From the sequence record SRR31156797_2307: a stretch of 64,000 bases of DNA; one strand, written 5' to 3'. Below the pieces are notes generated by a model. It was not told where the DNA came from. It did not search any database and saw only the letters and a list, made by a program, of their open reading frames with translations. A program made the translations under genes and the position numbers. How positions within the stretch are numbered: the first letter of the stretch is position 1; each line of letters opens with the position of its first letter. Positions 6,475 to 59,635 of this stretch are shown here, one piece after another.

Positions 6475-6529
6475 GAGACCGATGAATTATGAAAACCACT
6501 ATTTTTTTAAAAATAATATTCTCTGATTG

Positions 6530-7597
6530 ATGAATAAGTTAGGCAAACCGTATTATCCAAGTCTTAATGGATGGCGGGGAATAAGTGTAATTCTTGTTAT
6601 CTTACTTCATATTAAATATAAGTATTTTCCAGAAGTAAGTGAAACATTTTCATTGTTTTATGACGGTAAATTAGGCGTAAATATCTTTTTTGTAATATCT
6701 GGTTTCTTAATTACTTCTTTAATTATATATGAGGAAGAATCTTCAGGTAATATATCATTGCAAAATTTCTACATACGCAGGATATTTCGGATTTTTCCTG
6801 CATATTATACTTTGCTTATTGGATATTTAATTCTTCAGAAAACAGGTTTTATTTCTCTTAGCAAAGAATCTTGGATAACATCATTAACCTATACAAAATG
6901 TTTTAATATAATGAACGATTGGGAAACTGGTCATCTTTGGTCACTTTCAATCGAAGAACAGTTTTATATAATATGGCCAATTGTATATAAATTCTTTAAA
7001 AAACATCGAAACAAATTTGTTATATTTATCATAATCTCCACACCGATAATAAGACATTTCTATTATAATACCCACAACCCATGGATAAGTCAATTCACCA
7101 TTTTTCAGCGAAGTGATGCCATGATGTGGGGTTGTTTTTTGGCCATTCACTATGGAAAGATTTTTTACTTTGTAAATAAGGTAATTAAGAAATATAAGTT
7201 TGCGATTTATATTCCCTTTCTTATAATACCATTATTAGATATTATATCAAAAATCAATGTACGATATTCACTAGGTCTTGAGTTTTTTACTAAGTCAGTT
7301 GGTGGTACAACGTGTACGTTGTCTAGTATTAGTATTGGTCTAATGTTGATTGTAACCATTAATTATTCGCAAAACATTTTGTACAAAATTTTGAATTCGT
7401 CAGTATTAAATTTTTTGGGGAAAATATCGTATAGTGTGTACTTATGGCAACATATATTTCTGTCAAGGAAGTTGGGCTTTTTCTCAACATTACCTTATAA
7501 TATAATATTTATTTTTTGTGCTGCCATTCTTTCCTATTACTTCGTTGAAATACCATTCTTAAAATTGAAAAATAAATTCAATAAATCACAAACATAA
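6530..7597 (+). CDS. Acyltransferase family 3 (OafA/YrhL-like membrane O-acyltransferase)
   Basis: LNGWRG, GVNIFFVISGFLIT, FYIRRIFRIFP, HLWSLSIEEQFY and GKISYSVYLW motifs; multiple hydrophobic segments. Confidence 0.9.
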   Translation: MNKLGKPYYPSLNGWRGISVILVILLHIKYKYFPEVSETFSLFYDGKLGVNIFFVISGFLITSLIIYEEESSGNISLQNFYIRRIFRIFPAYYTLLIGYLILQKTGFISLSKESWITSLTYTKCFNIMNDWETGHLWSLSIEEQFYIIWPIVYKFFKKHRNKFVIFIIISTPIIRHFYYNTHNPWISQFTIFQRSDAMMWGCFLAIHYGKIFYFVNKVIKKYKFAIYIPFLIIPLLDIISKINVRYSLGLEFFTKSVGGTTCTLSSISIGLMLIVTINYSQNILYKILNSSVLNFLGKISYSVYLWQHIFLSRKLGFFSTLPYNIIFIFCAAILSYYFVEIPFLKLKNKFNKSQT

Positions 7598-7733: not shown

Positions 7734-9062
7734 ATGGACGATCGTTCTAAACTTGTTTTTGGAAATTTTAATTCAGAAGAGTATTGGAGAGACATAAATT
7801 ATGCCGAACTCCCTTCTTATAAAGATTTGCAAATTGAAAATATTGTTTCGGCTATGGACGAGATATTATTTCCATTTTGTAACGTGTCGAACGATACGCT
7901 CATAACACGGTATCCGATGGAGCAAATGCATTACGATTATTTAAACGAAATTGGCTTTTGTTTTCAAAACAAATCGATATTTAAAGAAAACGCTCAAAGT
8001 AATTACTGCAACTCTATAGAAAGTCAGGTGATTAAAGATGCGCAGAATCGGCTAAATAATATTGTGCCCAAAATATTTCGAATTGAACCTTTTTCAATAA
8101 TCCCAGATACAAAAGAGTTTTGTCGCATTTTTAATTCTCAAAATCTGTTTCCAAATATCGATGATGTAGTTAAAGTTAATTCCAAGATATTTTCTCATAA
8201 AATATCACACGAATTATTGGGAGAAAACCATGCAACTATTGTTTATTCAAGTGAAGAATTTGCAACCATAGGAACAAAAATGTTGGCTGATTCGAAAGCA
8301 GTTTTAGCAAAAGACCCTTATGGAGTATCTGGTAAAGGTAACTTTCTTATAGAATCGAAAGCAATGCTAAAGAGCTTATCGATGTTTATACTGAAACAGG
8401 AGAAAAAGGGAAAAGAAGTATGTTTTTTACTTGAAAAATTATTGGATAAGTATATTGATTTTTCATTCCAATTCGAAATTTCAGAAAACAATGATTTTCG
8501 AACTATTGCAATTCACGAAATGGAAAATAACAATTTTTGTTTCTCCGGTATCCGGGCAGCATCTGATAATTTAAAAAATATTTTGGAAAAAACACGTTAT
8601 TACGATACTGTTGTGAAAATTTCAGATTGTTTGTTCAATTCAGGTTATTTTGGGCCTGTTTGTCTCGACTCAATGATTACTTCTGATGGATTGGTAATTC
8701 CTATAATAGAGATAAATGCCAGAAGTTCAATGGGATTTATTAATCGTGCAATCGACCAGAGATTATCAGCCTCTAATTTGTCTAGCAAGCTATCATATTT
8801 TTCATTAGGCATAACCAAAAATTTCTCAATAAGTGAATTTTTATCTTGTTTAGAGAAATCAGAATTGCTGTTTCAAAAAAGTCGTCCATATGGAATAATA
8901 CCATTAACTACAACCACAATAACAATTAATGCAAAGTTGAACGAATATCCTTATAAAGGAAGGTTTTATTTCTCTATAGTGCCTAGTAAGCAATTCGATG
9001 AAACCATTATTTTAAAAATGCTAAAGGAGCAGTTTAACAAACTCGGAGCAAAGGTTTATTAA
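7734..9062 (+). CDS. ATP-grasp ligase (pre-ATP-grasp type seen in secondary-metabolite clusters)
   Basis: VNSK, KDPYGVSGKG loop, GYFGPVCLD and IEINAR motifs. Confidence 0.75.
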   Translation: MDDRSKLVFGNFNSEEYWRDINYAELPSYKDLQIENIVSAMDEILFPFCNVSNDTLITRYPMEQMHYDYLNEIGFCFQNKSIFKENAQSNYCNSIESQVIKDAQNRLNNIVPKIFRIEPFSIIPDTKEFCRIFNSQNLFPNIDDVVKVNSKIFSHKISHELLGENHATIVYSSEEFATIGTKMLADSKAVLAKDPYGVSGKGNFLIESKAMLKSLSMFILKQEKKGKEVCFLLEKLLDKYIDFSFQFEISENNDFRTIAIHEMENNNFCFSGIRAASDNLKNILEKTRYYDTVVKISDCLFNSGYFGPVCLDSMITSDGLVIPIIEINARSSMGFINRAIDQRLSASNLSSKLSYFSLGITKNFSISEFLSCLEKSELLFQKSRPYGIIPLTTTTITINAKLNEYPYKGRFYFSIVPSKQFDETIILKMLKEQFNKLGAKVY

Positions 9063-9064
9063 AT

Positions 9065-10174
9065 ATGAAAAAACAAGTTACAGCAATATTATGTTCGGGT
9101 GTTACTCTTGGAGCTTATAACCCTGCATTAATTTTACACCGAAAGTTTTCGGCATTAGGAATTGCTTCTGAATTGCAAACTTGTGAAACTCTCTTTTTTC
9201 AAGATAAGAAATTGAAGATTCTTGAGATGAAAAAAATGTTCCACAACAATTTCAAATTTGCATTGATGGGACAGAAAGTTTCAGGTACAGTACAAAACAA
9301 TTTCGATCCGTTTTTGCTGGAACAATTGTATGATAGATGGTATAGAAATGAAGTGCGAAATTTTATATTGTTTTCCGGATTTTGGATGGAAATAATAGAA
9401 GTTTTTTTCAAGAAATTTCCCAGTAACGATTACAATGTGAAAATATGCCACATGGACGCTGTTGAATCGGCTTCATGGAAATTGAAAAACTACAACCTGG
9501 AAGATTACGATAATATTTGGCTTTTTAATTGGGAACAGAAATCTATAAATAACTATATCTCCATTTCCGAAGACGATATAGTTCCTTTCGATGATCGAGA
9601 TAAAAGGTTGGTTATTCATGGAGGAGGATGGGGACTTGGTACTTATAAAGAAAAAATTGCATTTTTGGAATCGCAGAATATAAAACTAGATATTATCAAC
9701 TATGAGTATCGAGATATTACCAATTATAATTCTTCAAATCGGTATTTTATAATCAATCCCGATTGGAAAGCATGGGAGCCCAATGATTTAGGCGAATACA
9801 GCTTTCCTCCCTTTGGACGGTTCATACCTGGCTCAGAAGTTGAGTATACAACCCACAAAAATTATCCGGGTGTATATAATCTTATAATGAACAACGTTGG
9901 AATAATTAGCAAACCAGGAGGAGGAACAATAATCGATTCTTTATCGTCGGCAACGCCTATAATATTCCTTGATCCGTACGGTGACTATGAAAAAAAGAAT
10001 GCCGAATTAATTACCGATTTAGGATTGGGGATCTGGTTTGATGATTGGCAAAAATCTTCTTACTCTTTTGATCTACTTAAACAATGCCACGAAAATTTGG
10101 CTATCAAGAGAGAAGGACTTATTGATATAATGGATTTGTTTAAAGAAAAAAATCACGAAATAATAATTCAATAA
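9065..10174 (+). CDS. GT-B fold glycosyltransferase (UDP-glucuronosyltransferase/GT28-like)
   Basis: HGGGWGLG and ISKPGGGTIIDS...P...YE.KNA...LG.G nucleotide-sugar-binding C-terminal motifs. Confidence 0.65.
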   Translation: MKKQVTAILCSGVTLGAYNPALILHRKFSALGIASELQTCETLFFQDKKLKILEMKKMFHNNFKFALMGQKVSGTVQNNFDPFLLEQLYDRWYRNEVRNFILFSGFWMEIIEVFFKKFPSNDYNVKICHMDAVESASWKLKNYNLEDYDNIWLFNWEQKSINNYISISEDDIVPFDDRDKRLVIHGGGWGLGTYKEKIAFLESQNIKLDIINYEYRDITNYNSSNRYFIINPDWKAWEPNDLGEYSFPPFGRFIPGSEVEYTTHKNYPGVYNLIMNNVGIISKPGGGTIIDSLSSATPIIFLDPYGDYEKKNAELITDLGLGIWFDDWQKSSYSFDLLKQCHENLAIKREGLIDIMDLFKEKNHEIIIQ

Positions 10175-10177
10175 AAT

Positions 10178-10429
10178 ATGAGCGTAGAAGAAAAAGTTAA
10201 AGCTGTACTTGTAGAAGTCAAATCATTGAATGGTAATGATGTTAAATGGAACGGTGATATAGACATTATCAACGATATTGGAATGGATTCACTTCAAATC
10301 ATTAATTTCTTATTAAAACTTGAAGATCACTTAGATATTGAGATCGATTTTGAAGAGTTCAATTACAACCATCTCCGTTCGCTGGAAAAATTCTGTAGTT
10401 TTCTTCAAAAAAACTATGATTTAAACTAA
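10178..10429 (+). CDS. Free-standing acyl/peptidyl carrier protein
   Basis: 83 aa, acidic, DIGMDSLQ phosphopantetheine attachment motif. Confidence 0.9.
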   Translation: MSVEEKVKAVLVEVKSLNGNDVKWNGDIDIINDIGMDSLQIINFLLKLEDHLDIEIDFEEFNYNHLRSLEKFCSFLQKNYDLN

Positions 10430-10436
10430 TGGCATA

Positions 10437-11615
10437 ATGGCAGATTATCCACAGACAAAACGATTGATAGACAGTGATTCATTTGAGCGTGTAAGAAACA
10501 CGGTTAAAAACATTGCTTTATCACGTAAAATGCGTAAAGAAAATCCTTCGTATGCCCTCGATGTACCCGAAGAAGTAGGAATACAAGTAACTTATCGATG
10601 CAATCTGCGATGTAAGCATTGTTTCCAGTTGGGTGAAAGCGGTTTTTTTCATCACTATTCCGATAAGGTGAAAAATTCAGATTTGGATATCAAGGTAATC
10701 AAAAAAATCCTTGATTCTACTCAGCTCAATAATTCTAAGTTATATATATGGGGAGGTGAACCTTTTGTACATCGCGACTGGGATAATATAGCGCAAATGC
10801 TTAAAGATTATAACCGATGGATTGTTTTATGCACAAATGGATTGTTATTAAAAGACAAAATCGACACAATACTTGATGTGTCAGAAAATCTCGTTTTGTT
10901 GGTAAGTCTTGAGGGATTTGAAAAAGAACAGGATGCTTTACGGGGAAGAGGAACATACCAGCGTTTGATGCATAATCTGGAATATATTTTCGAGTTAAAA
11001 AGGAAAGGTTTATACAAAGGTCTTGTATCACTACATTTGGTTATTTCCGATGAAATGGCTCCTCGTCTTAACGAGTTTATGGAATATTGGGATCAAAAAG
11101 ATATCGATACTATTTATTTTTGTTTTCCCTGGTACATATCCGATTCAACTGCCGAAATGATGGACAACTATTATGAAACTAATTTTAATTGGTTGAACAA
11201 ATTGCCTGAAAATAAAAGTGCCAGTTGGTACGGTTATTCCTATAATCTAAAAAGTGAATCGCTTGAAGTTATGAAAGAGCAGTTTGCTTTATTGTCTTCA
11301 AAGGTTTGGAATGCCCGTATACGGTTCAATCCTCCTATTGGGCCCAACGAGTTTAAAGATTTCATCGAAGGAAGTCATATTCCCGGGTGTAACATTTCTA
11401 ATTGTTATGCTATTTCAAACCGAATGGATGTTCTTGCCGATGGTTCGGTAACATCATGCCAGTTATTTCCAGAATTCAGTATAGACAATTTATACGATAA
11501 TGAAGTGTTAGAGGTATGGAAGGGAGAAAAGTTCAATAATGCCCGGGAAATAATAAACAAGGGCTTAATGCCAATTTGTTCTAAATGTGCCTTATTGTAT
11601 CTAAATAGCAGATAA
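10437..11615 (+). CDS. Radical SAM enzyme with SPASM/twitch domain
   Basis: CNLRCKHC, GGEP, TNG; C-terminal C...C...CSKC auxiliary-cluster cysteines. Confidence 0.9.
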   Translation: MADYPQTKRLIDSDSFERVRNTVKNIALSRKMRKENPSYALDVPEEVGIQVTYRCNLRCKHCFQLGESGFFHHYSDKVKNSDLDIKVIKKILDSTQLNNSKLYIWGGEPFVHRDWDNIAQMLKDYNRWIVLCTNGLLLKDKIDTILDVSENLVLLVSLEGFEKEQDALRGRGTYQRLMHNLEYIFELKRKGLYKGLVSLHLVISDEMAPRLNEFMEYWDQKDIDTIYFCFPWYISDSTAEMMDNYYETNFNWLNKLPENKSASWYGYSYNLKSESLEVMKEQFALLSSKVWNARIRFNPPIGPNEFKDFIEGSHIPGCNISNCYAISNRMDVLADGSVTSCQLFPEFSIDNLYDNEVLEVWKGEKFNNAREIINKGLMPICSKCALLYLNSR

Positions 11616-11620
11616 TCAGA

Positions 11621-12703
11621 TTGGAAATGTTACCAAAGTGGATAGTTTTTCAGTTAACTAAAAGATGCAACCTTAGGTGTGAGATGTGCTATGAGTGGGG
11701 TAAAAATGGTACTTATTCTAAATCCGAAAACTTGGTAGATCTTGATTACAATGTTATTGAACAATCAATACTTGATACCGCATCTGCAAAGCCCAAATAC
11801 GAATTTTTTGGTGGTGAACCATTGTTATATCCCAAAATTTTTGATGTTATAGAACTCATCAAACAGAGGGAATGTATGGTTGATTTTCCTACAAACGGTT
11901 TTTTATTAAAGAAGCTAAAACACGAGATTGTAGATTCGGGGCCCGACTGCATTTGGGTGTCTATTGATGGCCCACGTGAAATTAATGACAAGCAAAGAGG
12001 CAATGGGGTATACAATAAAGCTATTGAGGGTATTAATGCCATTCAGGAGTTAAAAAGAGAAAAAAACAAGTTATTTCCCAAAATTGGTGTTACAACTGTA
12101 GTAACCAATAATAATTGGCAATTCATATCCGAATTTTTTAAAAACGATTTCGATTTAAAAACGGTCGATTTTGTAAATATTGAACTTCAGAGGTATTTAA
12201 CCCAGCATGAAATAGAATTATTTTCAAAAAGGTTAAACAACGAATTTAATATTCATTCAACATGTTCGGCAAATGGATATGTTGTTCCATCCGATTATTT
12301 TAAAGGAATAAATTTTGCGGAATTGTCTCGGCAACTCAAAGATTTAAAAGAAATTTGTCGTCAACAAAATGTAATGTTGAATTTTACGCCTAACATTGTT
12401 GAAGCAAATGACTTGCAAAATTACTTCTCAGGTAACTGGACGAAAATACCTGTTTGGGATGAAAAATGTTTCCTGCCATGGATTTATCTCGAGATTGCAG
12501 CAAACGGCAATGTTACAACATGTCCCACATTTTATGATGTTTCACTAGGTAATGTTTACGAAAAAAAATTGCTTGAAATATTTAAAGGCGATATGATGAA
12601 AAAAATGCGCAAAAGCGTAAGAAAAGAACTCTTTTCGATCTGTTACGCCTGTTGCAGACACTATCAAGAATCCCAGAAAAAAACGGGGCTTACTTATAAT
12701 TAA
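11621..12703 (+). CDS. Radical SAM enzyme with SPASM/twitch domain (start may be ATG 11627)
   Basis: CNLRCEMC, FGGEP, SIDG; CFLPW...C...CYACC. Confidence 0.9.
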   Translation: MEMLPKWIVFQLTKRCNLRCEMCYEWGKNGTYSKSENLVDLDYNVIEQSILDTASAKPKYEFFGGEPLLYPKIFDVIELIKQRECMVDFPTNGFLLKKLKHEIVDSGPDCIWVSIDGPREINDKQRGNGVYNKAIEGINAIQELKREKNKLFPKIGVTTVVTNNNWQFISEFFKNDFDLKTVDFVNIELQRYLTQHEIELFSKRLNNEFNIHSTCSANGYVVPSDYFKGINFAELSRQLKDLKEICRQQNVMLNFTPNIVEANDLQNYFSGNWTKIPVWDEKCFLPWIYLEIAANGNVTTCPTFYDVSLGNVYEKKLLEIFKGDMMKKMRKSVRKELFSICYACCRHYQESQKKTGLTYN

Positions 12704-12711
12704 TCTTAATT

Positions 12712-13683
12712 ATGAACATAGGTATACTAGGTGCTTCAAGAATAGCTCCTGATTCTATAATTTCACCTGCAAAAAAATTACTGGGTATTAATATTGTCGA
12801 TATTGCAGCAAGTAATAGCCAAAGAGCAGAAAAGTTTGCCCTCGATTATGGAATCCCCAGTTTTAAAACTAGTTACGATGAATTGATTGGTAGTCAGAAT
12901 ATTGACGTTGTATATATATCATTGAAAAATGACATGCACTTTGAATATGCTTTAAAGGCAATTGATAACAAAAAGCATGTTCTTATAGAAAAACCCATTT
13001 GTCTATCATACGAAGAGTTCAAAGTCATTGCTAAACTGGCAGAAAAACAAAAAGTTGTAGCTGTTGAAGCTATGATGGTAGAACATCACCCGTGGCAAAA
13101 TGCTATTTTAAACATTATCGATGAAAGGGAATATGGCTCAATTTTGAAAATTGATACGGTGAATGAATTTGTATTGGAGGGCCAAAACGATTACCGGTTT
13201 ACATCAGAACGTGGGGCAGGGGCCATTTACGATCTTGGGTGTTACTGTTTACAGTTTATCCAGAAAATGGTAGGACTTGAACATTCCGATATCAACTGTA
13301 ATTACAAAAGTAATAATGGTGGACGAGTAGATACTGAGTTTAATGCCGAAATGATAATTAATAATGTACAGGTAAATATTTCATGTTCTTTTAATAAACC
13401 ATTTAAAGCTTACCATCGTGTTGAGTGCGAAAAGGGTATTGTAGAAGTGAAGAACTTTTTTAGGGCTGGATTTGGGTATAATAAAATGAACATTCACTGC
13501 ACTGATAAAGTTTCGGAGAAAACCGATAAAGTCTCGTTCGATCCCATGAACTTTTACCACAATCAATTAAAAGATTTACAAGAAAATATTTATAACCGGA
13601 AACCGAATAAGTCGCTAGAAGAATCAGGCGAACGAGTACGAATTATGGAAATTTTGCATGATATAAAGCAATTGGTAAACTAA
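12712..13683 (+). CDS. Gfo/Idh/MocA family NAD(P)-dependent oxidoreductase
   Basis: IGILGASRIA Rossmann motif, KHVLIEKP and GGAxxDxGxY-like GAGAIYDLGCY. Confidence 0.9.
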   Translation: MNIGILGASRIAPDSIISPAKKLLGINIVDIAASNSQRAEKFALDYGIPSFKTSYDELIGSQNIDVVYISLKNDMHFEYALKAIDNKKHVLIEKPICLSYEEFKVIAKLAEKQKVVAVEAMMVEHHPWQNAILNIIDEREYGSILKIDTVNEFVLEGQNDYRFTSERGAGAIYDLGCYCLQFIQKMVGLEHSDINCNYKSNNGGRVDTEFNAEMIINNVQVNISCSFNKPFKAYHRVECEKGIVEVKNFFRAGFGYNKMNIHCTDKVSEKTDKVSFDPMNFYHNQLKDLQENIYNRKPNKSLEESGERVRIMEILHDIKQLVN

Positions 13684-13870
13684 CTGTTTTTTGTAAATAT
13701 AGACAAAAACTCAAAAGTTGTCGTCAACAGATACTTTCTTTATGGCTTATTTATCAGATAAATACAAATCCTGAACCTTTAAATAGGCGAAGCTAATCAA
13801 GCAATCAATGACAAGTTTACCTAATTCAGGAGATGCCTGTTTGCACAGTCATAATGTATAAACGAAAGAT

Positions 13871-13956
13871 ATCCCGGATGCAGCGTAGCGGAATTCAGGG
13901 ATTTTTTGTTATTAACTTATTATTCCCAAAATTTTGGGCTGATTCTTCGGATGACA
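13871..13956. repeat. REP-like palindromic element in the long intergenic gap
   Basis: ATCCCGGAT...ATTCAGGGAT imperfect hairpin (13871-13902), perfect palindrome CCCAAAATTTTGGG (13925-13938) and a GATTCTTCGGATGACA end that recalls Bacteroidota REP-type repeats. Confidence 0.4.
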
Positions 13957-14101
13957 AAACAGCTACTTTTTAGACCCCAGCAATAGAAATTGGGATAAAC
14001 GATAAGTAACTGAATTTGCTATTGTTGCAAAAGAGTTACATGTAAAACATACACAACTAAACATCATCTATTCAACAATTCTAATATAGATCAAACACAA
14101 T

Positions 14102-15145
14102 ATGAACAGTCCTAAGTGGATACAATTGCAACTTACCGAAAAATGCAATCTTAATTGTACAATGTGTTACGAGCGTAATTCCGATGCCTATCGAAATGAA
14201 GCTGTCGAGCTCGATATTAACGCGTTGTATCGTGTTGTTGAAGAATGTGCACAATACCTACCGCATTATGAGTTGTTTGGTGGCGAGCCACTAATGTATT
14301 CGAATTTAGAAAGTCTGTTGAATTATATACATAAAACCGGAAGTAAGGTAACCATTCCCACCAATGGGATGCTTCTGGCAAAAAAGTCAGGTATACTTGT
14401 TGGAAAATCTGTTGAAAAGGTGTGGGTGTCGCTCGACGGACCTCCTATGATAAACGACAAGCAACGGGGCTCAAATGCTTATAAAACAGCTATTAAAGGA
14501 ATTATAGCGTTGTATGATGAAAGAGCAAAACAAACATCAGGTTTGTCACCTAGAATAGGAGTGCATTGCGTGGTTACAGCACATAATTACAGGTACTTGG
14601 AGCAGTTGCTGAACGATCCTGTTTTATTTGAACATGTCGACGATTTTAGTTTTGAATTGCAAAAATATCTCCTGCCTCACCAATACGAACGTTATACCAA
14701 AATAATCGGGAAAAAGGATGCCCGGTTTGCTCAGGGATATGTGCAAGAAGTAAGCGATTTTTCAGCAATTGATTTTAAAATATTGGATAGCTTGTTAAAT
14801 AAGATACAACAGATGTGTAACGAAAAGGGAAAAGGTTTTTTTACCAATCCCGATAAGCTATGTTTAAGCGATATTGAGCATTATTTCACAGGCAATTGGG
14901 AAAAAATGTCGGTAGCGCATAAATCTTGTATTTTTCCTTTTATATATGCAGAAATTACAGCACGTGGAAATGTTGTGCTCTGCCATAGTTTTTACGATGA
15001 CTTTCTAGGGAATATTAATCAGGAAAGCTTTTTGCAGATTTGGAACAATACAAAAGCTAAAGAATTTCGAAAATCGATTCGAAAAGAATTGCTGCCAGTA
15101 TGCTATGCATGTTGTAGTTATTTTAATAGTGAAAATAGGGTCTAA
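14102..15145 (+). CDS. Radical SAM enzyme with SPASM/twitch domain, paralogue of 11621..12703
   Basis: CNLNCTMC; shares PKWI.LQLT, WVS.DGP..INDKQRG, ELQ.YL, YF.GNW and RKEL...CYACC with 11621..12703. Confidence 0.9.
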   Translation: MNSPKWIQLQLTEKCNLNCTMCYERNSDAYRNEAVELDINALYRVVEECAQYLPHYELFGGEPLMYSNLESLLNYIHKTGSKVTIPTNGMLLAKKSGILVGKSVEKVWVSLDGPPMINDKQRGSNAYKTAIKGIIALYDERAKQTSGLSPRIGVHCVVTAHNYRYLEQLLNDPVLFEHVDDFSFELQKYLLPHQYERYTKIIGKKDARFAQGYVQEVSDFSAIDFKILDSLLNKIQQMCNEKGKGFFTNPDKLCLSDIEHYFTGNWEKMSVAHKSCIFPFIYAEITARGNVVLCHSFYDDFLGNINQESFLQIWNNTKAKEFRKSIRKELLPVCYACCSYFNSENRV

Positions 15146-15163
15146 CAAATAATAGAATACAAA

Positions 15164-18100
15164 ATGTCATCAAAAGACATTGCAATTATAGGTATGGCAG
15201 CTCGTTTGCCTGAATGCGACAATATTCATCATTACTGGGATAATATTGTTTTAGGTAAAGAAATGATTTCAACCTTTAAAAGGGAAGACTTTAAGGAGGA
15301 ATATCAGAAAACTTTATTTGACAACGAGAGGTATATAAAACGGTCTTCTGTAATTCGGGATATTGATTGTTTTGACGCACGTTTTTTTGATTTCAGCCCA
15401 AGAGAAGCAGAACTTACCGATCCTCAATTTAGGCTATGTCTAGAAACAGCTTGGGAAGCGATCGAAGATAGTGGTTTCAATCCTAATAAAAACAGTGAAT
15501 GTGTTGGGGTTTACCTCGCTTCCAATATGTCAGATTATCAATTAAAACACTTGTATGACCAAATACACGGTGAAATGGTCTCTGAAAATGAGTTTCCTTT
15601 GGTTTACCAATCATGTATGGATTATTTGGCAACCAATGTGGCATACAAACTCAATTTAAAAGGGCCTTGTATGAATGTGCAAAACTGGTGTACATCGGGT
15701 TTAAGTTCAATACATCTAGCTTGCAGGTCTTTACTGTTCGATGATTGCGATGTGGCATTAGCTGGTGGCGTGCACATAAAATTACCACAAGAAGGCTACT
15801 TTAGCCAAGGTTCAGTTTCTGATTCTTCTGAAGGTGTATGCATGTCGTTTAATAAAGAGGCTAATGGAACTGTTCCGGCAAATGGGGTAGGTATTTTTAT
15901 TCTGAAAAAATTGGACGATGCCCTTCGCGACAACGATAACATTTATGCGATTATAAAAGGTTCTGCAATAAATAACGACGGAGTCGGTAAAAATAAGTTG
16001 AGCTATCACTCACCATCTATAAAAGGTCAGGATGAGGTAATAAAAAAAGCCTTAAAAAATGCAGGTGTAGATCCCGACACTATTTCGTTTATCGAAGCGC
16101 ATGGTGGTGCCACCGAATTTGGCGATAGGGCTGAATTAACGGCATTGGCTAAAAACTATGGGCTCAGCGGGCGTCAAACATTTCTTGGTTGCGTTAAGCC
16201 CAATATCGGGCACATGGGTAATATTTCGGGTATTCCCGGATTTATTAAAACTATAATGGCTCTTAAAACCAAACAATGGCCTCCTACTATTAATTTTTCC
16301 GAAATGTCTTCGAAAAATAAAAAAATAGGTCGGAATTTTACAGTTAATATAAAGCCTGTCGATTGGAAGTCTTCAATAGATTATAAACTGCGTGCCTGTG
16401 TACATAATTACGCTGTTGGAGGTTCGAATGCTCATATAATACTCGAAGAACCACCGGTTCAGAATGCTATTGAAAGTTGTGATTATAACAGTGTTGTTTT
16501 GGCTTTTTCGGCAAAAAACAACAAGTCCCTAAAAAAGCAAATAGAAAACATTGAATTGTTCCATGTTCATAATAGTTCAGTATTAAATTTGATTGACATT
16601 GCTTACAATCTTAATACAGGAAGAAAGGAATTTGAATATAGGCATTTTATGGTTTTGGATACAAACAAAAAAGCAACTTCAATTTCGGCTTCTAAAATTT
16701 ATGATGCAATAGGAACAATTTCTGGTGACTTTCAAGGGGAACAAACACTATTTTTAGGAAATAACAAGCATAATTGCAGGACTTTTAGTAAGATTTTAGC
16801 GAAAAGGTATAAAAGTTATAAAACAGATTTAATGACCTGTATTCTTGATATTGAAAAGCTACAGAATAGTAAAATATATTTTGATAGTATTAGTAATACT
16901 GCAGTCGGTACTTTTTATACTAGTATCGAAGAAAAGCTAATCGATATGGCGTGCCAGGTATCATTGTATCGATATTTGAATAGGTTAGGCATTGGTAAAA
17001 CTAATATTTTGGCAGATAATAGTGGCGAATTTATAGCACTTCATCTTTCAGGCTTTTCTTCCTTTAAAAAAATGGCAGAGCTATATATTAAAGCCTCTGA
17101 AGCCAACAGTTCTTTCGAAGATGAAGAAATTACAAGTTATTTCGATCTTCCCGATGCCAAATATGCATCTTATAAAAACTTCGATGGAAAAGTATCATAC
17201 AAAACAGAAGAAATAAGTAAACTGGCCTATTGGTCGAAACTTATAGATAAAGGAAATGATACTATTCAAAATAATTCAGAAGTTGATTGCGAAATATTAG
17301 ATCTTTCGGCATTAAAAATAAGCACCCTATCAGAAGCTATATCAAGTAAAACGAACGATTTTACTTCTTATGATTTTGATATTCTGGTAGGCCAATTATG
17401 GTTGAAAATTCCCAATTTAAATTGGAATGCATATTTCGATGAACGAAAGATGAAAAGAATGTCGTTGCCCACCTATCCTTTTCAAAAGGAGAAATTCTGG
17501 GTGTCTTCGCCTTTACTTGACGAAAAGCAACCGGTAGTATCAACTGAATTTCAAACAGAGGTATCGCAAGATAACATTCGGGAAAATCTGGTAACATTGT
17601 GGAAGAAAATTATAGGTTTAAAAGAAGTTAGCCCAGATGACGATTTCTATACTATAGGTGGAAATTCGTTTATTGCTGTAACATTGTTAAACAAATTGGC
17701 CAATATCTATAAAGGTCTCGATGTTTCTATAAAAGATTTGAACGACCATTCCAATATACAATTACTTACAACGTTTATTTATAAAGAATTGTCAAACAAC
17801 TCAGACGACAATCATTTTGATATTCAAAAAACACCGGTAGAAAAACTCGTTGAAAACGGATTGTTAGAGAAATATATCGAGCGATTGCTAAATAAACTGT
17901 TTCAGGGTAAATACAATTCCGACGAATTTAGTCTTATTGATATTGTTAAAGATGTATGCTTTTACTTTAAAAAGGATCTCGGATTAGTGGTTTTCACGCA
18001 TGAAATTGAGAACTTTTCAAGTACAGAAGTTTTGGTGAAATTTGTACGAGATGCTTTGTTAAATACACTTAATCCAAAGGGTGTAGGTTCGGGGTTATCT

Positions 18101-19003
18101 ACCAATAACTTTAAATGGTTGCCTAAAAACCTCGATTTCACAAAAAACAAGATATCACAAAAGAACAAAAGGGCTGTATTTATTTTATCTACACCACGGT
18201 CAGGATCAACTCTTTTAAGGGTGATGCTAAACAGCCATTCCACATTTTTTGCTCCACCCGAGTTAGGATTGTTGGTTTATAATAATCTGGAAGAATGGAA
18301 TCAATTCTATAATGTTTCCGAGGTGTCGAGAGATGGATTGACGTATGCTTTTTCTGCCATGCGTGATATTTCGTTTACCGAGGCCCGACAACAAGTAATG
18401 TCACTAGTTTCTGAAAAAAGGAGTGTTCAGGATATTTATTCATTATTACAGGAAGAAATAGGGGATAAGCTATTGGTTGACAAAACCCCTTACTATGGTT
18501 ATAGCAAAGAAATATTAGAAAGGGCCGAACAAATGTTCGATAATCCTTATTATATCTTTTTACACAAACATCCCTATAGTATGATCGAATCGTTTGTTCG
18601 TAATCGGTTCGATAAGCTTGTAGATAAGGGTGCTACCGATCCTTATATGATGGCTGAAAATGAATGGACAGAGATTAACCACAATATTATTGCTTTCTCA
18701 GAAAAGATTGATAGAAAACGATTTTTTCAATTATCGTTTGAAGAATTAGTTTCGGATCCTAAACGAGTAATGTCCGATCTGTTTCAGAAATTAAACATAG
18801 ATTTTCAAGACAGTGTTGTCGATCCATATAAAAACAGCTCAATGTTGGTTGGTCCTGGCGATTTTAACCTGCTTTCGCACGAAGGAATAGATAGCTCACT
18901 AGGCAATAAATGGAAAAATATTCAATTACCAATCGAGTTGAAGGATAGTACAAAAGATATTGCTTTAAAACTCGAATATTCTTTAGTGACGCATCACTTA
19001 TAG
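15164..19003 (+). CDS. Type I PKS: KS - inactive AT - ACP - vestigial ACP - sulfotransferase
   Basis: KS Cys-His-His (QNWCTSG, EAHGGAT, NIGH); AT remnant with ADNSGE where GHSxGE is expected; LPTYPFQ linker; ACP GGNSF; sulfotransferase FILSTPRSGSTLLR, PPE, DKTPY. No thioesterase. Confidence 0.9.
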   Translation: MSSKDIAIIGMAARLPECDNIHHYWDNIVLGKEMISTFKREDFKEEYQKTLFDNERYIKRSSVIRDIDCFDARFFDFSPREAELTDPQFRLCLETAWEAIEDSGFNPNKNSECVGVYLASNMSDYQLKHLYDQIHGEMVSENEFPLVYQSCMDYLATNVAYKLNLKGPCMNVQNWCTSGLSSIHLACRSLLFDDCDVALAGGVHIKLPQEGYFSQGSVSDSSEGVCMSFNKEANGTVPANGVGIFILKKLDDALRDNDNIYAIIKGSAINNDGVGKNKLSYHSPSIKGQDEVIKKALKNAGVDPDTISFIEAHGGATEFGDRAELTALAKNYGLSGRQTFLGCVKPNIGHMGNISGIPGFIKTIMALKTKQWPPTINFSEMSSKNKKIGRNFTVNIKPVDWKSSIDYKLRACVHNYAVGGSNAHIILEEPPVQNAIESCDYNSVVLAFSAKNNKSLKKQIENIELFHVHNSSVLNLIDIAYNLNTGRKEFEYRHFMVLDTNKKATSISASKIYDAIGTISGDFQGEQTLFLGNNKHNCRTFSKILAKRYKSYKTDLMTCILDIEKLQNSKIYFDSISNTAVGTFYTSIEEKLIDMACQVSLYRYLNRLGIGKTNILADNSGEFIALHLSGFSSFKKMAELYIKASEANSSFEDEEITSYFDLPDAKYASYKNFDGKVSYKTEEISKLAYWSKLIDKGNDTIQNNSEVDCEILDLSALKISTLSEAISSKTNDFTSYDFDILVGQLWLKIPNLNWNAYFDERKMKRMSLPTYPFQKEKFWVSSPLLDEKQPVVSTEFQTEVSQDNIRENLVTLWKKIIGLKEVSPDDDFYTIGGNSFIAVTLLNKLANIYKGLDVSIKDLNDHSNIQLLTTFIYKELSNNSDDNHFDIQKTPVEKLVENGLLEKYIERLLNKLFQGKYNSDEFSLIDIVKDVCFYFKKDLGLVVFTHEIENFSSTEVLVKFVRDALLNTLNPKGVGSGLSTNNFKWLPKNLDFTKNKISQKNKRAVFILSTPRSGSTLLRVMLNSHSTFFAPPELGLLVYNNLEEWNQFYNVSEVSRDGLTYAFSAMRDISFTEARQQVMSLVSEKRSVQDIYSLLQEEIGDKLLVDKTPYYGYSKEILERAEQMFDNPYYIFLHKHPYSMIESFVRNRFDKLVDKGATDPYMMAENEWTEINHNIIAFSEKIDRKRFFQLSFEELVSDPKRVMSDLFQKLNIDFQDSVVDPYKNSSMLVGPGDFNLLSHEGIDSSLGNKWKNIQLPIELKDSTKDIALKLEYSLVTHHL

Positions 19004-19101
19004 TATGGAGAAATTTAATCTCTCTTTTAAGCATTCTCCCATATTTGTTTATGTGTCATTTTGTTAGTCGCATTGCATTATTTAAATAATTTTTTATTCT
19101 T

Positions 19102-20442
19102 TTGAAAAATAAGCTAGTAATACTATTAGTCGAAGGTGCCAGTAAAAAACTAATTAATAAGTGGCAAGATAAACTTCCGTATTTAAGTAATTTATTAAGC
19201 AAAAATGGAGGAACCTTAACCACTAACGTAGTTCCGTATGAAGCACCAAACCTAATCTCGGCATTTACAGGGCTTCCGCCCGAAGAGCACGGTGTATATT
19301 CCTATTGGCACGTACATAACAACGACTATATTCCTAAAACATGGGATGCCCCGGATATTAAAGTACCAATGCTGTGGCAGTTACCGGAAATGGAGCAATA
19401 TAAGTTTTCGTTATTAAACTTATTCTGCACTTTTCCGGCATATCCCATAAATGGTAAAATGATATCATATTTGCAACAGCCTTCGTTAAGAGGGTGTTAC
19501 CCAGAGGGATACATAAAGGAACTTTTGCGAAACGGACATAAGTATACTTCCGATGTATTTGTTGGACTTGGCTATGGACAAGACAAACCAATTTCTGGAA
19601 AAAATATTTCACCTAGAGAAGAGTATTACAGGTTGTTTGAAGAAACAGAAAGGGCAAGGGTAAATATAGCCTCTGAAATGATGGAAGAATCAGATGTGCT
19701 TATAGCAAATTTTACTATAATTGACAGGCTTTCTCATTTTTTTTGGCACGAAATAGAATACGATTCACCTATAACCGAAGAGGATTCATTACTATTTAAA
19801 GCATATCGGTTTATCGATGAGGTTGTCGGACAATTTGCCGATAAAATTGGAACAGCATCCAACCTGTTGGTTTTTTCAGAGATTGGTTATGGCCCCTTAA
19901 TCAATTTTGTTTCTATCAACAATTATCTCGAAACTGGCAAGTTTTTGTCTCGGGAGAATTCTTCTACTAGTTGGCAAAAAACATTGACATTTGAGAGTGT
20001 TCAGGGAGCCCATGGAGTTAATATCAATAAAAAAGACAGATACCTAAATGGCCTGGTAAACGACGACGATTACCAAAAGGTGCGGATTGATACAATGGAT
20101 TATTTAAAGAGCCTGATCAATCCCAAAACAAGTCTTCCAATGTTCCGTTTTGTTAAAGAACGCGAAGAGGTATATAATGGAACATACATGCAACAAGCTC
20201 CCGATATAATTGTTGAAATGGCCGATAGAAGATTTGTACCCTTAGGTGATGAATATTGGTCGAGTAAGGTACATCGGATTAATCAAAGCGGATGGCACCG
20301 AAAAGAAGGATTTTGGACCGGATATGGTGATAAATTCAATGGAAAACTTATGGATGCATCTATACTTGATATAGCTCCTACGGTTTTCAAAATTTTAGAC
20401 AAGGAAATAAATACAGAGTTTGTGGGAAAACCTATCATTTAA
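19102..20442 (+). CDS. Alkaline phosphatase superfamily protein (type I phosphodiesterase/nucleotide pyrophosphatase-like) with atypical ligands
   Basis: LLVEGA, TG..PEEHGVY, DRLSHFFW, VFSEIGYG, APDII, SGWHRKEG and DIAPT align with the AlkP/NPP-like family. Confidence 0.75.
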   Translation: MKNKLVILLVEGASKKLINKWQDKLPYLSNLLSKNGGTLTTNVVPYEAPNLISAFTGLPPEEHGVYSYWHVHNNDYIPKTWDAPDIKVPMLWQLPEMEQYKFSLLNLFCTFPAYPINGKMISYLQQPSLRGCYPEGYIKELLRNGHKYTSDVFVGLGYGQDKPISGKNISPREEYYRLFEETERARVNIASEMMEESDVLIANFTIIDRLSHFFWHEIEYDSPITEEDSLLFKAYRFIDEVVGQFADKIGTASNLLVFSEIGYGPLINFVSINNYLETGKFLSRENSSTSWQKTLTFESVQGAHGVNINKKDRYLNGLVNDDDYQKVRIDTMDYLKSLINPKTSLPMFRFVKEREEVYNGTYMQQAPDIIVEMADRRFVPLGDEYWSSKVHRINQSGWHRKEGFWTGYGDKFNGKLMDASILDIAPTVFKILDKEINTEFVGKPII

Positions 20443-20470
20443 TCAGGTTAGGTTATATAAAAATGAAAAA

Positions 20471-21277
20471 ATGGGAAAGCTAGCTTCTAAACTAAAGTCT
20501 TTTAAATTAATTCGATGGTTTTTGTGGTATGTCAAAGTACAGAATAAGTTGCCGCTGGTGCTTGAAATAGAATTAGACTCGCTTTGCAATCGTAAATGCA
20601 CCTATTGTCCTAATTATAAACACGAAAGGGCACATCATACTTTAAGTTCTGATACATATAAAGGTATTATTGGCCAATTACACGAAATGGGTTGGAAGGG
20701 TGTTATTTCACCGCATTTTTACAACGAACCTTTGCTCGATAAACGATTAGAAGAATTGTTATTGTATACAAAACAAAAACTAGGTAAAAGAGCATGTATC
20801 AAACTATTTACAAACGGCGATTTGCTAACAACTGAATTAGCAAAGAAGTGGCTATTCGATTCTAAAATAGTAGACGAATTTGTGGTTACAGTCCATGAAA
20901 AAGATTTGTCGGATAGGAAAGATTTGGTGGATTTATCCAAACTTCCCGAGTATCAAAGAAAACTGTATGTTAGATCAACTGAGAATATTGAAAAACAATA
21001 TTTAAACAGGGGTGGTATCATGGATTTTGATTATGTAAACTGGGGGGAGGAGTTTCAAAAACTCGGTTGTTCATTAACACAAAGAATGATTATAACCTCA
21101 AAGGGTAATCATGTGTTATGTTGCAACGACTATTTCGAAAAAACTGCATTTGGAAATGTCAGTGATACAAGTATCCAGAAACTATGGAGCAAATCTAAAA
21201 AAACAAGAAAAGACACCTATATAGGTAATTTCAAATTACCAATTTGTAAAGTATGCGTAGGCATTTCAAAAAACTAA
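20471..21277 (+). CDS. Radical SAM enzyme with twitch/SPASM domain
   Basis: CNRKCTYC, NEPLL, TNG, NRGG, C...CCNDY...FGN...CKVC. ATG 20471 is preferred to the overlapping start at 20420. Confidence 0.88.
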   Translation: MGKLASKLKSFKLIRWFLWYVKVQNKLPLVLEIELDSLCNRKCTYCPNYKHERAHHTLSSDTYKGIIGQLHEMGWKGVISPHFYNEPLLDKRLEELLLYTKQKLGKRACIKLFTNGDLLTTELAKKWLFDSKIVDEFVVTVHEKDLSDRKDLVDLSKLPEYQRKLYVRSTENIEKQYLNRGGIMDFDYVNWGEEFQKLGCSLTQRMIITSKGNHVLCCNDYFEKTAFGNVSDTSIQKLWSKSKKTRKDTYIGNFKLPICKVCVGISKN

Positions 21278-22749: not shown

Positions 22750-22885
22750 TTTACGGTTGGCTGTGTGAGCCTACTATTATTTTAGGTGCAAAAAAATACT
22801 TGATGACAAATAAATATTATTTGTAGGTGTTTTGTTTTGTAATAACCTGTTCTTTAAAATCACATTAATTTACAACCAATTTAGA

Positions 22886-33636: not shown

Positions 33637-34421
33637 TGGAACCATTATTTTTCAACGAGCATAATAATAGACTATTCGGGGTTTTTCATGAAGCCAAAGG
33701 CTATGATACGAATATTGGTATAATAATGTGTTACCCGTTAGGCTATGAATATCAAAGGTCGCATCGTACTTTTTATACATTGAGCGAACAACTGTCAAAC
33801 GAAGGTTTTGATGTTTTGCGTTTCGATTTTTCGGGTTGCGGCGATTCTGCTGGATATTTAAATGAAGCAAATCTAGATTTATGGATCAATGATATTGTTG
33901 CAGCTAAAGAAATGATGGAAAACAGCAAAGCCTATTCAAAAATTGTGCTTGTTGGAAATCGTATGGGGGCAACATTAGCTTTTATGGCTTCAAACAGTAG
34001 ACTAACAGATATTAAAAATATTGTATTGTGGGATCCAATTTTAAATGGGCATATATATCTTAATCAGTTACAAAATGCTCACGAAAAATGGTTAGTACAA
34101 TCGTTTTCGTTACATAATTCTAATGCAACAAATGAATTTATAGGTTATAAGGTAGAAGAACCTCTTCTTTCAGCAATAAAAAACATTAACCTGACCGATA
34201 CCGGGAAAATAAATATTCAAAAGGTGCTGTACATCGAAACAGGTCCGGATATTGAAGACAATATGTTTAAAAAATATCTTCAAAATAATATTGAAAAGTA
34301 TACATATTCACATTTACTCGGAAACCAAAATTGGGATAAAATGAAGGACGAAGATAACCAGTACATGGTTCAGCTTAACGTGGTTGAAAAAATAGTTGAT
34401 TGGATAAAGGAAGTGTTGTAG
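33636..34421 (+). CDS. Alpha/beta hydrolase-fold protein (GxRxG elbow, exosortase-associated hydrolase-2-like)
   Basis: LRFDFSGCGDSAG, VGNRMGA and LWDP motifs. Confidence 0.75.
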   Translation: MEPLFFNEHNNRLFGVFHEAKGYDTNIGIIMCYPLGYEYQRSHRTFYTLSEQLSNEGFDVLRFDFSGCGDSAGYLNEANLDLWINDIVAAKEMMENSKAYSKIVLVGNRMGATLAFMASNSRLTDIKNIVLWDPILNGHIYLNQLQNAHEKWLVQSFSLHNSNATNEFIGYKVEEPLLSAIKNINLTDTGKINIQKVLYIETGPDIEDNMFKKYLQNNIEKYTYSHLLGNQNWDKMKDEDNQYMVQLNVVEKIVDWIKEVL

Positions 34422-34443
34422 ACTAAATACTAGAACTGTTTTA

Positions 34444-39261: not shown

Positions 39262-39323
39262 AAAGAGATTGTGATACAAATCAACAATATTCAAACTCCG
39301 TTATTTAAAAATAAGTTTCGTTT

Positions 39324-53239: not shown

Positions 53240-53240
53240 C

Positions 53241-56790: not shown

Positions 56791-56834
56791 TTAAACCTTG
56801 ATTTTTAATTAGAAATATAGATTAAGATAATAAT

Positions 56835-59583: not shown

Positions 59584-59635
59584 TAAATCTTATCAATTTA
59601 AAAGCTGTTTTACCTAACAAATTGATAAGTAAACC

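Follow-up and report, generated by a model that had tools for sequence, protein, structure and literature searches.

A conserved ATP-grasp, glycosyltransferase, carrier protein and radical SAM gene module in a Bacteroidota polyketide cluster, and its possible role in carrier-templated assembly of glyco-acyl units

Introduction

In the nonribosomal peptide synthetase (NRPS)-independent, carrier-templated (non-canonical thiotemplated, NCT) pathways to closthioamide (CTA; CtaD, CtaE, CtaF and CtaG) and butirosin (BtrJ, BtrI, BtrK and BtrH), an ATP-grasp ligase is encoded beside a free-standing carrier protein and no adenylation domain is involved. According to the account in PMC7183216, CtaD loads aspartate onto the peptidyl carrier protein (PCP) CtaE, and BtrJ acts likewise with glutamate. 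In butirosin biosynthesis, formation and loading of the side chain fall to btrI, btrJ and btrH (PMC13707489, PMC7183216), and butirosin side-chain genes are also described in PMC11350588. In early pactamycin biosynthesis, as presented in PMC9092360, the glycosyltransferase (GT) PtmJ glycosylates a beta-ketoacyl intermediate while it is bound to the acyl carrier protein (ACP) PtmI. Here, we describe a locus that combines elements of these systems. It lies in a stretch of 64,000 nucleotides of the sequence record SRR31156797_2307 (the window), where seven genes at positions 7734 to 15145 encode an ATP-grasp ligase, a GT, an ACP, three radical S-adenosylmethionine (SAM) enzymes (rSAM1 to rSAM3) and a dehydrogenase, followed by a polyketide synthase (PKS) gene. 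Four of these gene types form a conserved module in related loci, and we propose with moderate confidence, by analogy, that the window carries a portable, NRPS-independent and carrier-templated cassette, in which loading as in BtrJ/BtrI or CtaD/CtaE, glycosylation as in pactamycin and remodelling of the sugar by radical SAM enzymes would yield a unit for the ketosynthase (KS) of the PKS encoded at 15164-19003.

Homologues of CtaD are numerous. A network of 402 of them is reported in PMC7183216, 95% of which are linked to a PCP and whose products are given as unknown; most of their loci fall into a group with enzymes resembling beta-ketoacyl-ACP synthase III (KASIII) or a group with a GT of family PF13528, and about one third lie near NRPS or PKS genes. 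For pactamycin, the radical SAM enzymes PtmC and HpnJ are proposed to rebuild the sugar (PMC9092360). Our literature search returned no description of a module that consists of an ACP, an ATP-grasp ligase, a GT and a radical SAM enzyme.

A conserved four-gene module

Six open reading frames (ORFs) on the plus strand occupy positions 7734 to 13683 with intergenic gaps of 2, 3, 7, 5 and 8 nucleotides, and the GT gene sits between the ATP-grasp and ACP genes. The seventh ORF follows after a gap of 418 nucleotides and ends 18 nucleotides ahead of the PKS gene. An earlier reading of this DNA from its letters alone (hereafter the sequence-only reading) had noticed the tight packing, with gaps below 10 nucleotides, and a third radical SAM gene; both observations hold, and its labels for the ACP and the dehydrogenase are borne out by family matches given below. 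The genes of the cassette are:

7734-9062, plus strand: ATP-grasp ligase of 442 amino acids from a distinct clade (AlphaFold2 fold, invariant residues, tree)
9065-10174, plus strand: divergent GT of the GT-B fold, 369 amino acids (AlphaFold2 fold, conserved motifs)
10178-10429, plus strand: free-standing ACP, 83 amino acids (Pfam PP-binding)
10437-11615, plus strand: rSAM1, 392 amino acids, the radical SAM type of the conserved core (Radical_SAM and SPASM domains)
11621-12703, plus strand: rSAM2, 360 amino acids, an optional addition that usually accompanies the dehydrogenase (Radical_SAM and SPASM domains)
12712-13683, plus strand: NAD(P)-dependent oxidoreductase of the GFO/IDH/MocA family, 323 amino acids (Pfam GFO_IDH_MocA and C3 domain)
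14102-15145, plus strand: rSAM3, 347 amino acids, a paralogue of rSAM2 (Radical_SAM and SPASM domains)

Relatives of the ATP-grasp protein were sought by profile search with one genome per species and were found in 325 of 374 candidate stretches; the best 80 of the 325 loci were analysed by calling ORFs mechanically and comparing them with the window proteins. Because several of the 80 loci are cut by contig ends, all gene counts are lower bounds. The ATP-grasp ligase is present in 79 loci, the GT in 77, the ACP in 75 and a radical SAM protein of the rSAM1 type in 70, commonly in the order ACP, ATP-grasp, GT, radical SAM and with genes that touch or overlap. These four genes are a conserved module, and since the same genes adjoin one another in most of the related loci, their arrangement is more than chance. 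The remaining cassette genes are optional: the GFO/IDH/MocA enzyme occurs in 19 loci and the rSAM2 type in 17, and an ORF with rSAM3 as its best match was found once, at 24% identity.

The hosts belong to eight phyla (Bacillota, Cyanobacteriota, Pseudomonadota, Bacteroidota, Chlorobiota, Chloroflexota, Spirochaetota and Fibrobacterota) and include many Paenibacillus, soil bacteria among them, as well as Clostridium, a Nostoc from lichen, Prochloron, Leptolyngbya, methanotrophic Methylococcaceae and Thiothrix. The window itself is Bacteroidota DNA, as judged from its SAM synthetase, which shares 70-72% identity with the enzymes of Prolixibacteraceae, Maribellus and Marinifilum.

The genes that surround the module vary, and many of them encode enzymes that could accept a carrier-bound unit. 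A protein of 340 amino acids without a Pfam family, which we call BtrH-like, is encoded in 28 loci; one of four members tested gave a weak BtrH_N match (E 0.017), and in a protein atlas the family lies (score 0.98) beside clusters in which 11-26% of the members carry BtrH_N, DUF4872 and Peptidase_C39_2. Other transfer partners are KASIII-like enzymes (14 loci), papain-like DUF1796 proteins (6) and free Condensation domains (2), while one locus (L004) holds a PKS with KS, acyltransferase (AT), ACP and thioesterase domains and another (L033) an NRPS with condensation, adenylation, thiolation and thioesterase domains. At least one transfer enzyme is found in 43 of the 80 loci. Fifty-five loci contain ABC transporter genes; many of those from Paenibacillus have an ABC ATPase and two ABC-2 permeases in addition to the module, with counts of 43, 37 and 34, respectively, over the whole set of 80, and the minimal operons of this genus consist of the ACP, ATP-grasp, GT and radical SAM genes, an ABC-2 exporter and the BtrH-like protein. 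Genes for sugar metabolism recur as well, encoding nucleotidyltransferases, epimerases/dehydratases, UDP-glucose dehydrogenases (6 loci), PIG-L deacetylases (11 loci), DegT aminotransferases, carbamoyltransferases and family 2 glycosyltransferases (GT2); the last of these accompany polysaccharide pyruvyl transferase genes in cyanobacterial loci. Sulfation genes are likewise recurrent neighbours, with adenylylsulfate (APS) kinase in 7 loci together with sulfotransferases and a sulfate permease.

The ATP-grasp ligase and the carrier protein

The ATP-grasp protein matches no Pfam family, even at E ≤ 10, and no NCBIfam family, and when the ATP-grasp and GT proteins were each compared singly with PDB sequences, only marginal matches resulted; matches to a PH domain and to OST48_N in the scans of these two proteins were noise. 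As neither gene has a Pfam family, the labels that the sequence-only reading gave them rested on motifs. AlphaFold2 models built from homologue alignments have since confirmed both, with mean predicted local distance difference test (pLDDT) scores of 90.8 for the ATP-grasp protein and 89.2 for the GT. In a Foldseek search, the ATP-grasp model matched best a Streptomyces peptide ligase (8ynd, E 4.9e-18), with 7r8q, BesA (8yi6) and PGM1 (3wvr/3wvq) of pheganomycin biosynthesis next, and all top matches are ATP-grasp enzymes. The matches to 8ynd, BesA and PGM1 include the N-terminal pre-ATP-grasp part at sequence identities of 13-16%, and some homologues carry the name 'peptide ligase PGM1-related'. 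K151, K193, E326, N328 and R330, which correspond to nucleotide-binding and catalytic positions, are invariant across 15 homologues, so that the fold is accompanied by the conserved nucleotide- and Mg-binding residues.

A second line of relatives leads to ATP-grasp enzymes that load carriers. The window protein shares 21% identity over 371 amino acids (E 2e-18) with P0104, a protein listed in UniRef under a name that starts with 'Aspartic acid-holo car...'. In two of the 80 loci, both from Paenibacillus (L040, trio at 18019-21000; L063, second ATP-grasp at 18573-19931), a second ATP-grasp gene lies between a pyridoxal phosphate (PLP)-dependent decarboxylase of the ornithine/diaminopimelate type, found in these two loci of the 80, and a PCP; judged by its encoded proteins, this trio is the arrangement of BtrJ/BtrK/BtrI and CtaD/CtaF/CtaE. 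The second ATP-grasp of L040 is 30% identical to P0104 (E 1e-48) and 23% to the window protein (E 1e-22), which is thus a full-length homologue of ATP-grasps in a decarboxylase and PCP setting. In a quick maximum-likelihood tree of 46 ATP-grasp sequences, 28 cassette-type proteins occupy one side of a branch (Shimodaira-Hasegawa-like approximate likelihood ratio test, SH-aLRT, 88), beside a short actinobacterial group, and the window protein falls among the Bacteroidota copies. The tree suggests that the window ATP-grasp is a relative of the carrier-loading enzymes that stands outside their clade.

The ACP was assigned by Pfam to PP-binding (E 1.2e-8; 35.5 bits against a cut-off of 20.8). Its matches to the NCBIfam models of ACP and DltC are weak and below cut-off, with 32 bits against 68 for DltC. 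All 25 aligned cassette ACPs retain the Asp-Ser attachment motif (D37, S38), and a free carrier with its attachment serine therefore accompanies the ligase as in the pathways of CtaD and BtrJ. A phosphopantetheinyl transferase encoded in the same cluster at 47024-47803 (Pfam ACPS 1e-13, AASDHPPT_N 5.7e-9) would make the holo form of this ACP. Within the four-gene core, the ATP-grasp ligase is the sole enzyme that activates carboxylates, and we propose from these sequence features that it loads a carboxylic or amino acid onto the free ACP.

The glycosyltransferase

The GT has no Pfam family at E ≤ 10, which includes Glyco_tran_28_C, Glyco_trans_1_3 and UDPGT, and its only NCBIfam match, to diglucosyl-diacylglycerol synthase, covers 46 residues (E 1.1e-4; 21 bits against a cut-off of 557). 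Its model gave 379 PDB matches at E ≤ 1e-3 in Foldseek, of which the best listed are all GT-B enzymes, and the protein at 9065-10174 has the two Rossmann domains of this fold together with a C-terminal nucleotide-sugar motif; the motifs HGGGWGxGTY and SKPGGxT...E..N are conserved. MurG (7d1i) is the best match by E-value (2.1e-10) with a template modelling score (TM-score) of 0.51, whereas the natural-product GT1 enzyme CalG3 follows at 2.1e-9 with a TM-score of 0.61, and the elaiophylin GT, CalG1 and OleD-type enzymes are also among the matches.

The GTs form a compact family set apart from others. Among 1.84 billion cluster representatives, a profile search found 220 at E ≤ 1e-30 and only 616 at E ≤ 1e-3, and in the protein atlas its neighbours with PF04101 or PF13528 reach a score of only 0.91; the automatic atlas names of its nearest clusters include 'UDP-glucuronosyltransferase'. 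Natural fusions in the representative library join the GT to a GFO/IDH/MocA domain (P0254) and, in two proteins (P0310 and P0356), to an NRPS Condensation domain. Because of these Condensation fusions and the tight order of the ACP, ATP-grasp, GT and radical SAM genes, the sequences suggest that the GT acts close to carrier chemistry. A complex prediction of GT and ACP, for which alignments were unused, scored 0.22 against a mark of 0.34 and is not taken as evidence on binding either way.

Radical SAM enzymes and dehydrogenase

All three radical SAM proteins contain a CX3CX2C motif, which in rSAM1 is CNLRCKHC at residue 55, and a SPASM domain (40-49 bits against a cut-off of 21.5). The Pfam E-values for Radical_SAM and SPASM are 1.1e-15 and 4.4e-10 in rSAM1, 7.3e-13 and 6.8e-13 in rSAM2, and 7.6e-11 and 7.6e-12 in rSAM3. 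rSAM2 and rSAM3 are 38% identical, while rSAM1 shares 26% with rSAM2 and 22% with rSAM3. Outside the SAM cluster, only C323, C341, C381 and C384 are invariant in the rSAM1 family, and five cysteines are invariant in the rSAM2/3 family. A full SPASM domain has a seven-cysteine pattern that holds two auxiliary clusters, and BtrN represents the Twitch type with one cluster. No CX2CX5CX3C stretch of the seven-cysteine pattern is present in rSAM1 to rSAM3, which by their sequences look more like the Twitch type than like full SPASM proteins. A B12-binding domain was not found in any of them by Pfam, nor is the HpnJ model TIGR03471 among their 25 best NCBIfam families.

Their affinities are mixed, and judging by these comparisons the enzymes form families of their own. 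The best NCBIfam models reach 81-113 bits against a cut-off of 380, and many of the matches are peptide maturases, all far below cut-off. Among PDB sequences, rSAM3 is closest to BlsE (7vob, 1.1e-11), a radical SAM decarboxylase, and to the radical SAM dehydrogenase BtrN (4m7s/4m7t, about 3.3e-10). The family profile of rSAM1 finds CteB (5.7e-14), SkfB, anSME, the C-terminal part of BtrN (1e-9) and BlsE (4e-4), and that of rSAM2/3 has CteB first (1.7e-18), BlsE second (3.3e-14) and BtrN at 4.8e-11. The rSAM2/3 proteins share with BlsE and BtrN a short C-terminal cluster domain with few cysteines, as in Twitch domains.

The dehydrogenase (Pfam GFO_IDH_MocA 1.3e-24, 87.6 bits, with the C3 domain) is probably a sugar dehydrogenase, as suggested by its best NCBIfam matches, which all remain below cut-off: UDP-GlcNAc 3-dehydrogenase (62.6 bits against 450), levoglucosan dehydrogenase and inositol 2-dehydrogenase.

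The polyketide synthase and its link to the cassette

Around the cassette lies a PKS/NRPS cluster, which includes a phosphopantetheinyl transferase gene and efflux genes of its own. The features that bear on its link to the assembly line are:

13861-13910, plus strand: candidate weak terminator or attenuator, a hairpin followed by a U-run (folding against shuffles)
15164-19003, plus strand: PKS module with KS, linker, ACP and sulfotransferase (Pfam, active-site residues)
47024-47803, plus strand: Sfp-type 4'-phosphopantetheinyl transferase (Pfam ACPS, AASDHPPT_N)

Pfam identifies ketoacyl-synt (9.6e-62), PP-binding and Sulfotransfer_3 in the PKS, and no AT domain. The KS keeps the active-site cysteine (WCTSG) and both histidines (EAHGG, NIGHMG), and its position makes the PKS a likely recipient of the ACP-bound unit. 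This protein and the second PKS, encoded at 22832-30367, both end in a Sulfotransfer_3 domain.

The hairpin in the 418-nucleotide gap has a minimum free energy of -15 kcal/mol (z -2.28), and 6 of 200 shuffles fold at least equally well; perhaps it serves as a terminator or attenuator between the cassette and the PKS operon. As this gap with its hairpin intervenes, the coupling between cassette and PKS is a positional one. No Rfam family matches the window at gathering threshold. Pattern scans of the window gave 47 promoter-like sites against 42.7 in shuffles, with a consensus that does not cover Bacteroidota promoters, and 6 terminator-like sites against 3.9; neither result is informative.

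Proposed pathway and comparison with known systems

We propose that the ATP-grasp ligase converts a carboxylic acid (probably an amino acid) into its acyl phosphate and loads the acid onto the phosphopantetheine thiol of the free ACP, as BtrJ does with BtrI and CtaD with CtaE. The GT would then add a sugar from a common nucleotide sugar, for which the tethered acid is the likeliest acceptor; PtmJ and PtmI of pactamycin are the only published precedent known to us for the glycosylation of a carrier-bound acceptor (PMC9092360). Next, rSAM1 would remodel the sugar, joined in the window by rSAM2, the GFO/IDH/MocA dehydrogenase and rSAM3, with oxidation, dehydration, decarboxylation or C-C bond formation as possible radical chemistry. 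The finished glyco-acyl unit would pass to the KS of the PKS at 15164-19003, and elsewhere to the outlet of the respective locus.

This proposal is based on likenesses to described systems, each of which also differs from the cassette. The pathways of CtaD and BtrJ resemble the cassette not only in the pairing of ligase and carrier but also in the surroundings of related loci, where papain-like or BtrH-like transferases, KASIII-like enzymes or a GT and at times NRPS or PKS genes are found. They differ in that the cassette ATP-grasps, compared through P0104 and the L040 and L063 copies, form a separate clade, that the window has neither a PLP-dependent decarboxylase nor a transacylase, and that the core of the cassette includes a GT-B and a radical SAM enzyme as fixed members, unlike CTA or butirosin side-chain synthesis. 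The early steps of pactamycin biosynthesis (PtmI, PtmJ and PtmC) bring ACP, GT and radical SAM genes together, a likeness drawn here by description; the sugar is put on an ACP-bound intermediate, and its further remodelling is proposed to precede release (PMC9092360). Related loci hold genes for deacetylases, KASIII-like enzymes, carbamoyltransferases, oxidoreductases and methyltransferases. The pactamycin cluster has genes of these same five kinds. Its loading enzyme PtmS is an AMP-forming ligase, unlike the ATP-grasp of the cassette, and PtmC and HpnJ are radical SAM enzymes with a B12 domain, unlike rSAM1 to rSAM3 with their SPASM/Twitch-type C-terminal parts. PGM1, BesA and 8ynd are the best structural matches of the ligase, but to our knowledge these enzymes are not encoded with a carrier protein, whereas the cassette has an ACP in nearly all loci. 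Taken together, the module is best filed as a variant of the NRPS-independent, carrier-templated ATP-grasp pathways with a fixed, uncharacterised pair of GT-B and radical SAM enzymes.

Several observations weigh against the proposal. In the tree, a branch with SH-aLRT 100 splits the cassette-type ATP-grasps from the clade that contains the decarboxylase/PCP-linked copies and P0104, and because the cassette enzymes form a separate clade, the function of the carrier-loading enzymes is not simply transferable to them. In addition, 8ynd, BesA and PGM1 are amide-forming ligases that work without a carrier, and since these are the nearest solved relatives, the window enzyme may form an amide rather than a thioester. 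The radical SAM proteins belong to no specific family, and their best PDB profile match is the peptide maturase CteB. Within the DNA examined, several stretches of which are short contigs, 37 of the 80 loci show no recognisable transfer enzyme, and a PKS or NRPS adjoins the module in only two. In the window, Pfam scans show no PLP-dependent decarboxylase, BtrH-like protein or papain-like transacylase, a tblastn search with 28 BtrH-like proteins gave no match, and the 418-nucleotide gap with its hairpin parts the six-gene block from rSAM3 and the PKS.

Alternative explanations

A division of labour as in butirosin is the leading rival and deserves some weight, although we consider it rather doubtful. 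The GT, the radical SAM enzymes and the dehydrogenase would build a free modified sugar or pseudo-sugar, the ATP-grasp and the ACP would prepare an aminoacyl side chain in the manner of the btr genes, and a transferase (BtrH-like, KASIII-like or a Condensation domain) would join the two, so that the sugar would never reside on the carrier. The BtrH-like proteins of 28 loci, the PIG-L deacetylases of 11, the recurrent nucleotide-sugar genes, the similarity of rSAM3 to BtrN and the matches of both radical SAM family profiles to the C-terminal part of BtrN are all consistent with such a split. The GT-Condensation fusions and the tight core order, however, point to a GT near carrier chemistry, Pfam scans of the window and the loci contain no enzyme of the 2-deoxy-scyllo-inosose synthase type or other cyclitol-forming enzyme, and a BtrH-like gene is missing from the window. 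It is unlikely that the cassette decorates the cell envelope, with a GT resembling MurG or monogalactosyldiacylglycerol (MGDG) synthase and an ACP-borne acyl or aminoacyl group that would modify a glycolipid or polysaccharide exported by an ABC-2 transporter, loosely as in D-alanylation by DltA/DltC. MurG leads the fold matches of the GT by E-value, the sole NCBIfam match of the GT is a lipid glycosyltransferase (diglucosyl-diacylglycerol synthase), the ACP weakly matches the DltC models, and transporter, GT2 and polysaccharide pyruvyl transferase genes lie in related loci, but natural-product GT1 enzymes are nearly equal to MurG by E-value and have higher TM-scores. Moreover, the family is patchy and often found in secondary-metabolite settings (PKS, NRPS, Condensation domains, KASIII-like enzymes), and the window copy lies within a PKS/NRPS cluster with its own phosphopantetheinyl transferase and efflux genes.

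The sequence-only reading had likened the cassette to blasticidin S and to the amipurimycin/miharamycin clusters, with a BlsD-like glucuronosyltransferase acting on a nucleobase, a BlsE-like decarboxylase and an amide ligase like BlsI or that of the Apm proteins, which would yield a peptidyl nucleoside or high-carbon sugar. In its favour, BlsE is the best PDB match of rSAM3 and the second of the rSAM2/3 profile, UDP-glucose dehydrogenase genes occur in 6 loci, and a glucuronosyltransferase name appears near the GT in the atlas. We nevertheless regard this origin as very unlikely: the BlsE equivalog model TIGR04466 gives rSAM3 48.4 bits against a cut-off of 400, and is absent from the 25 best NCBIfam families of rSAM1 and of rSAM2; the rSAM1 profile reaches BlsE only at 4e-4, and the rSAM2/3 profile ranks CteB above BlsE; Pfam scans of the 41 window proteins hold no nucleotide hydrolase, nucleobase-releasing or -supplying enzyme or other nucleoside-pathway family; and the invariant ACP is left unexplained. 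The lists of PDB and family matches of the GT and the ATP-grasp contain neither BlsD nor BlsI. The ATP-grasp is nearest to PGM1/BesA-type ligases and to carrier-loading relatives, and the blasticidin S and amipurimycin/miharamycin analogies find no support in these comparisons, which cover BlsE and the nucleoside-pathway families. The same reading had also named what would speak against it, namely a GT grouping with lipid-type transferases and radical SAM enzymes grouping with peptide maturases, and here the result is divided: MurG has the best E-value and CteB is the best match for rSAM1 and rSAM2, whereas CalG3 superimposes better on the GT model (TM-score 0.61 against 0.51) and BlsE and BtrN are the best matches for rSAM3. 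Maturation of a ribosomally synthesized peptide by the ATP-grasp, the GT and SPASM-type radical SAM enzymes is hardly credible. The radical SAM profiles have CteB, SkfB and anSME among their top PDB hits and many NCBIfam matches are peptide maturases far below cut-off, yet the gap at 13684-14101 holds only unconvincing ORFs of 20-57 amino acids and no credible precursor peptide, the module has a carrier protein with an invariant serine instead, and the radical SAM families keep four to five invariant C-terminal cysteines without the full SPASM pattern. Thus, of the logic that the sequence-only reading had suggested, the assembly of a modified glycosyl unit, perhaps on the free ACP, that primes or caps a PKS or NRPS agrees with the module linkage, the transfer partners, the GT-Condensation fusions and the intact KS, while its nucleoside part finds no such support.

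Other genes in the window

Further genes of the window are recorded here as observations in their own right. Immediately before the cassette, 136 nucleotides upstream and on the same strand, a gene for a membrane Acyltransferase_3 protein (6527-7597) could O-acylate a sugar or belong with a neighbouring glycoside hydrolase family 2 (GH2) gene. At 723-1427, a PNP_UDP_1 protein resembles methylthioadenosine/S-adenosylhomocysteine (MTA/SAH) nucleosidase (70.6 bits against a cut-off of 73.8); together with the SAM synthetase gene, in the stretch 723-2719 at the 5' end, it lies upstream of a cluster with seven Radical_SAM genes, and the pair may provide a dedicated SAM supply and clean-up of 5'-deoxyadenosine.

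Other radical SAM genes follow the first PKS gene. At 19102-21277, a gene of the alkaline phosphatase superfamily (Pfam Phosphodiest) overlaps a gene for a 285-amino-acid SPASM radical SAM protein by 23 nucleotides, a pairing reminiscent of sulfatases and their maturases. A MiaB/RimO-like radical SAM methylthiotransferase is encoded inside the cluster at 21295-22749 (TIGR00089, 160.5 bits against a cut-off of 251) and may methylthiolate a small molecule instead of tRNA or a ribosomal protein. The region 37752-40514 contains an ORF of 168 amino acids with a weak B12-binding match, then, after 94 nucleotides, a radical SAM core of 302 amino acids and a B12-type radical SAM protein of 310 amino acids that is 38% identical to this core; this resembles a pair of B12-dependent radical SAM genes that has been split or has decayed.

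Two alpha/beta hydrolases encoded after the NRPS (33636-35274) are similar to the exosortase-A-associated hydrolases 1 and 2 (100-103 bits, below cut-off). The protein of 366 amino acids at 43663-44763 has a Rid/L-PSP domain and a weak match to the FkbO/Hyg5 chorismatases (43.9 bits against a cut-off of 325); should it be a chorismatase, it could provide the pathway with a hydroxybenzoate-type acid. From 52616 to 64000, the G+C content is 27-29%, compared with about 33-35% in the cluster, and the genes are those of polysaccharide synthesis (a Wzy_C protein, two GT4 enzymes and a MurJ-like flippase); this region probably marks the 3' border of the biosynthetic cluster.

Concluding remarks

Beyond the window, we tentatively suggest that the four-gene module, present in at least eight phyla, assembles a sugar on a carrier-tethered acid and rebuilds it there by radical chemistry, and that it may thus provide a portable glyco-acyl building block with varied outlets, including BtrH-like, KASIII-like and papain-like enzymes, Condensation domains and KS domains. 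For two of the four core proteins there is no curated family, and the module escapes standard genome-mining rules. If the suggestion is true, the module would be a handle for finding glycosylated metabolites tailored by radical SAM enzymes that current tools miss, it would show a route by which a sugar-bearing starter unit enters a polyketide line, and it would offer an enzyme set for making carrier-bound glycoconjugates. Glycosylation on a carrier, which we know from pactamycin alone, would then become a general and widespread biosynthetic strategy.

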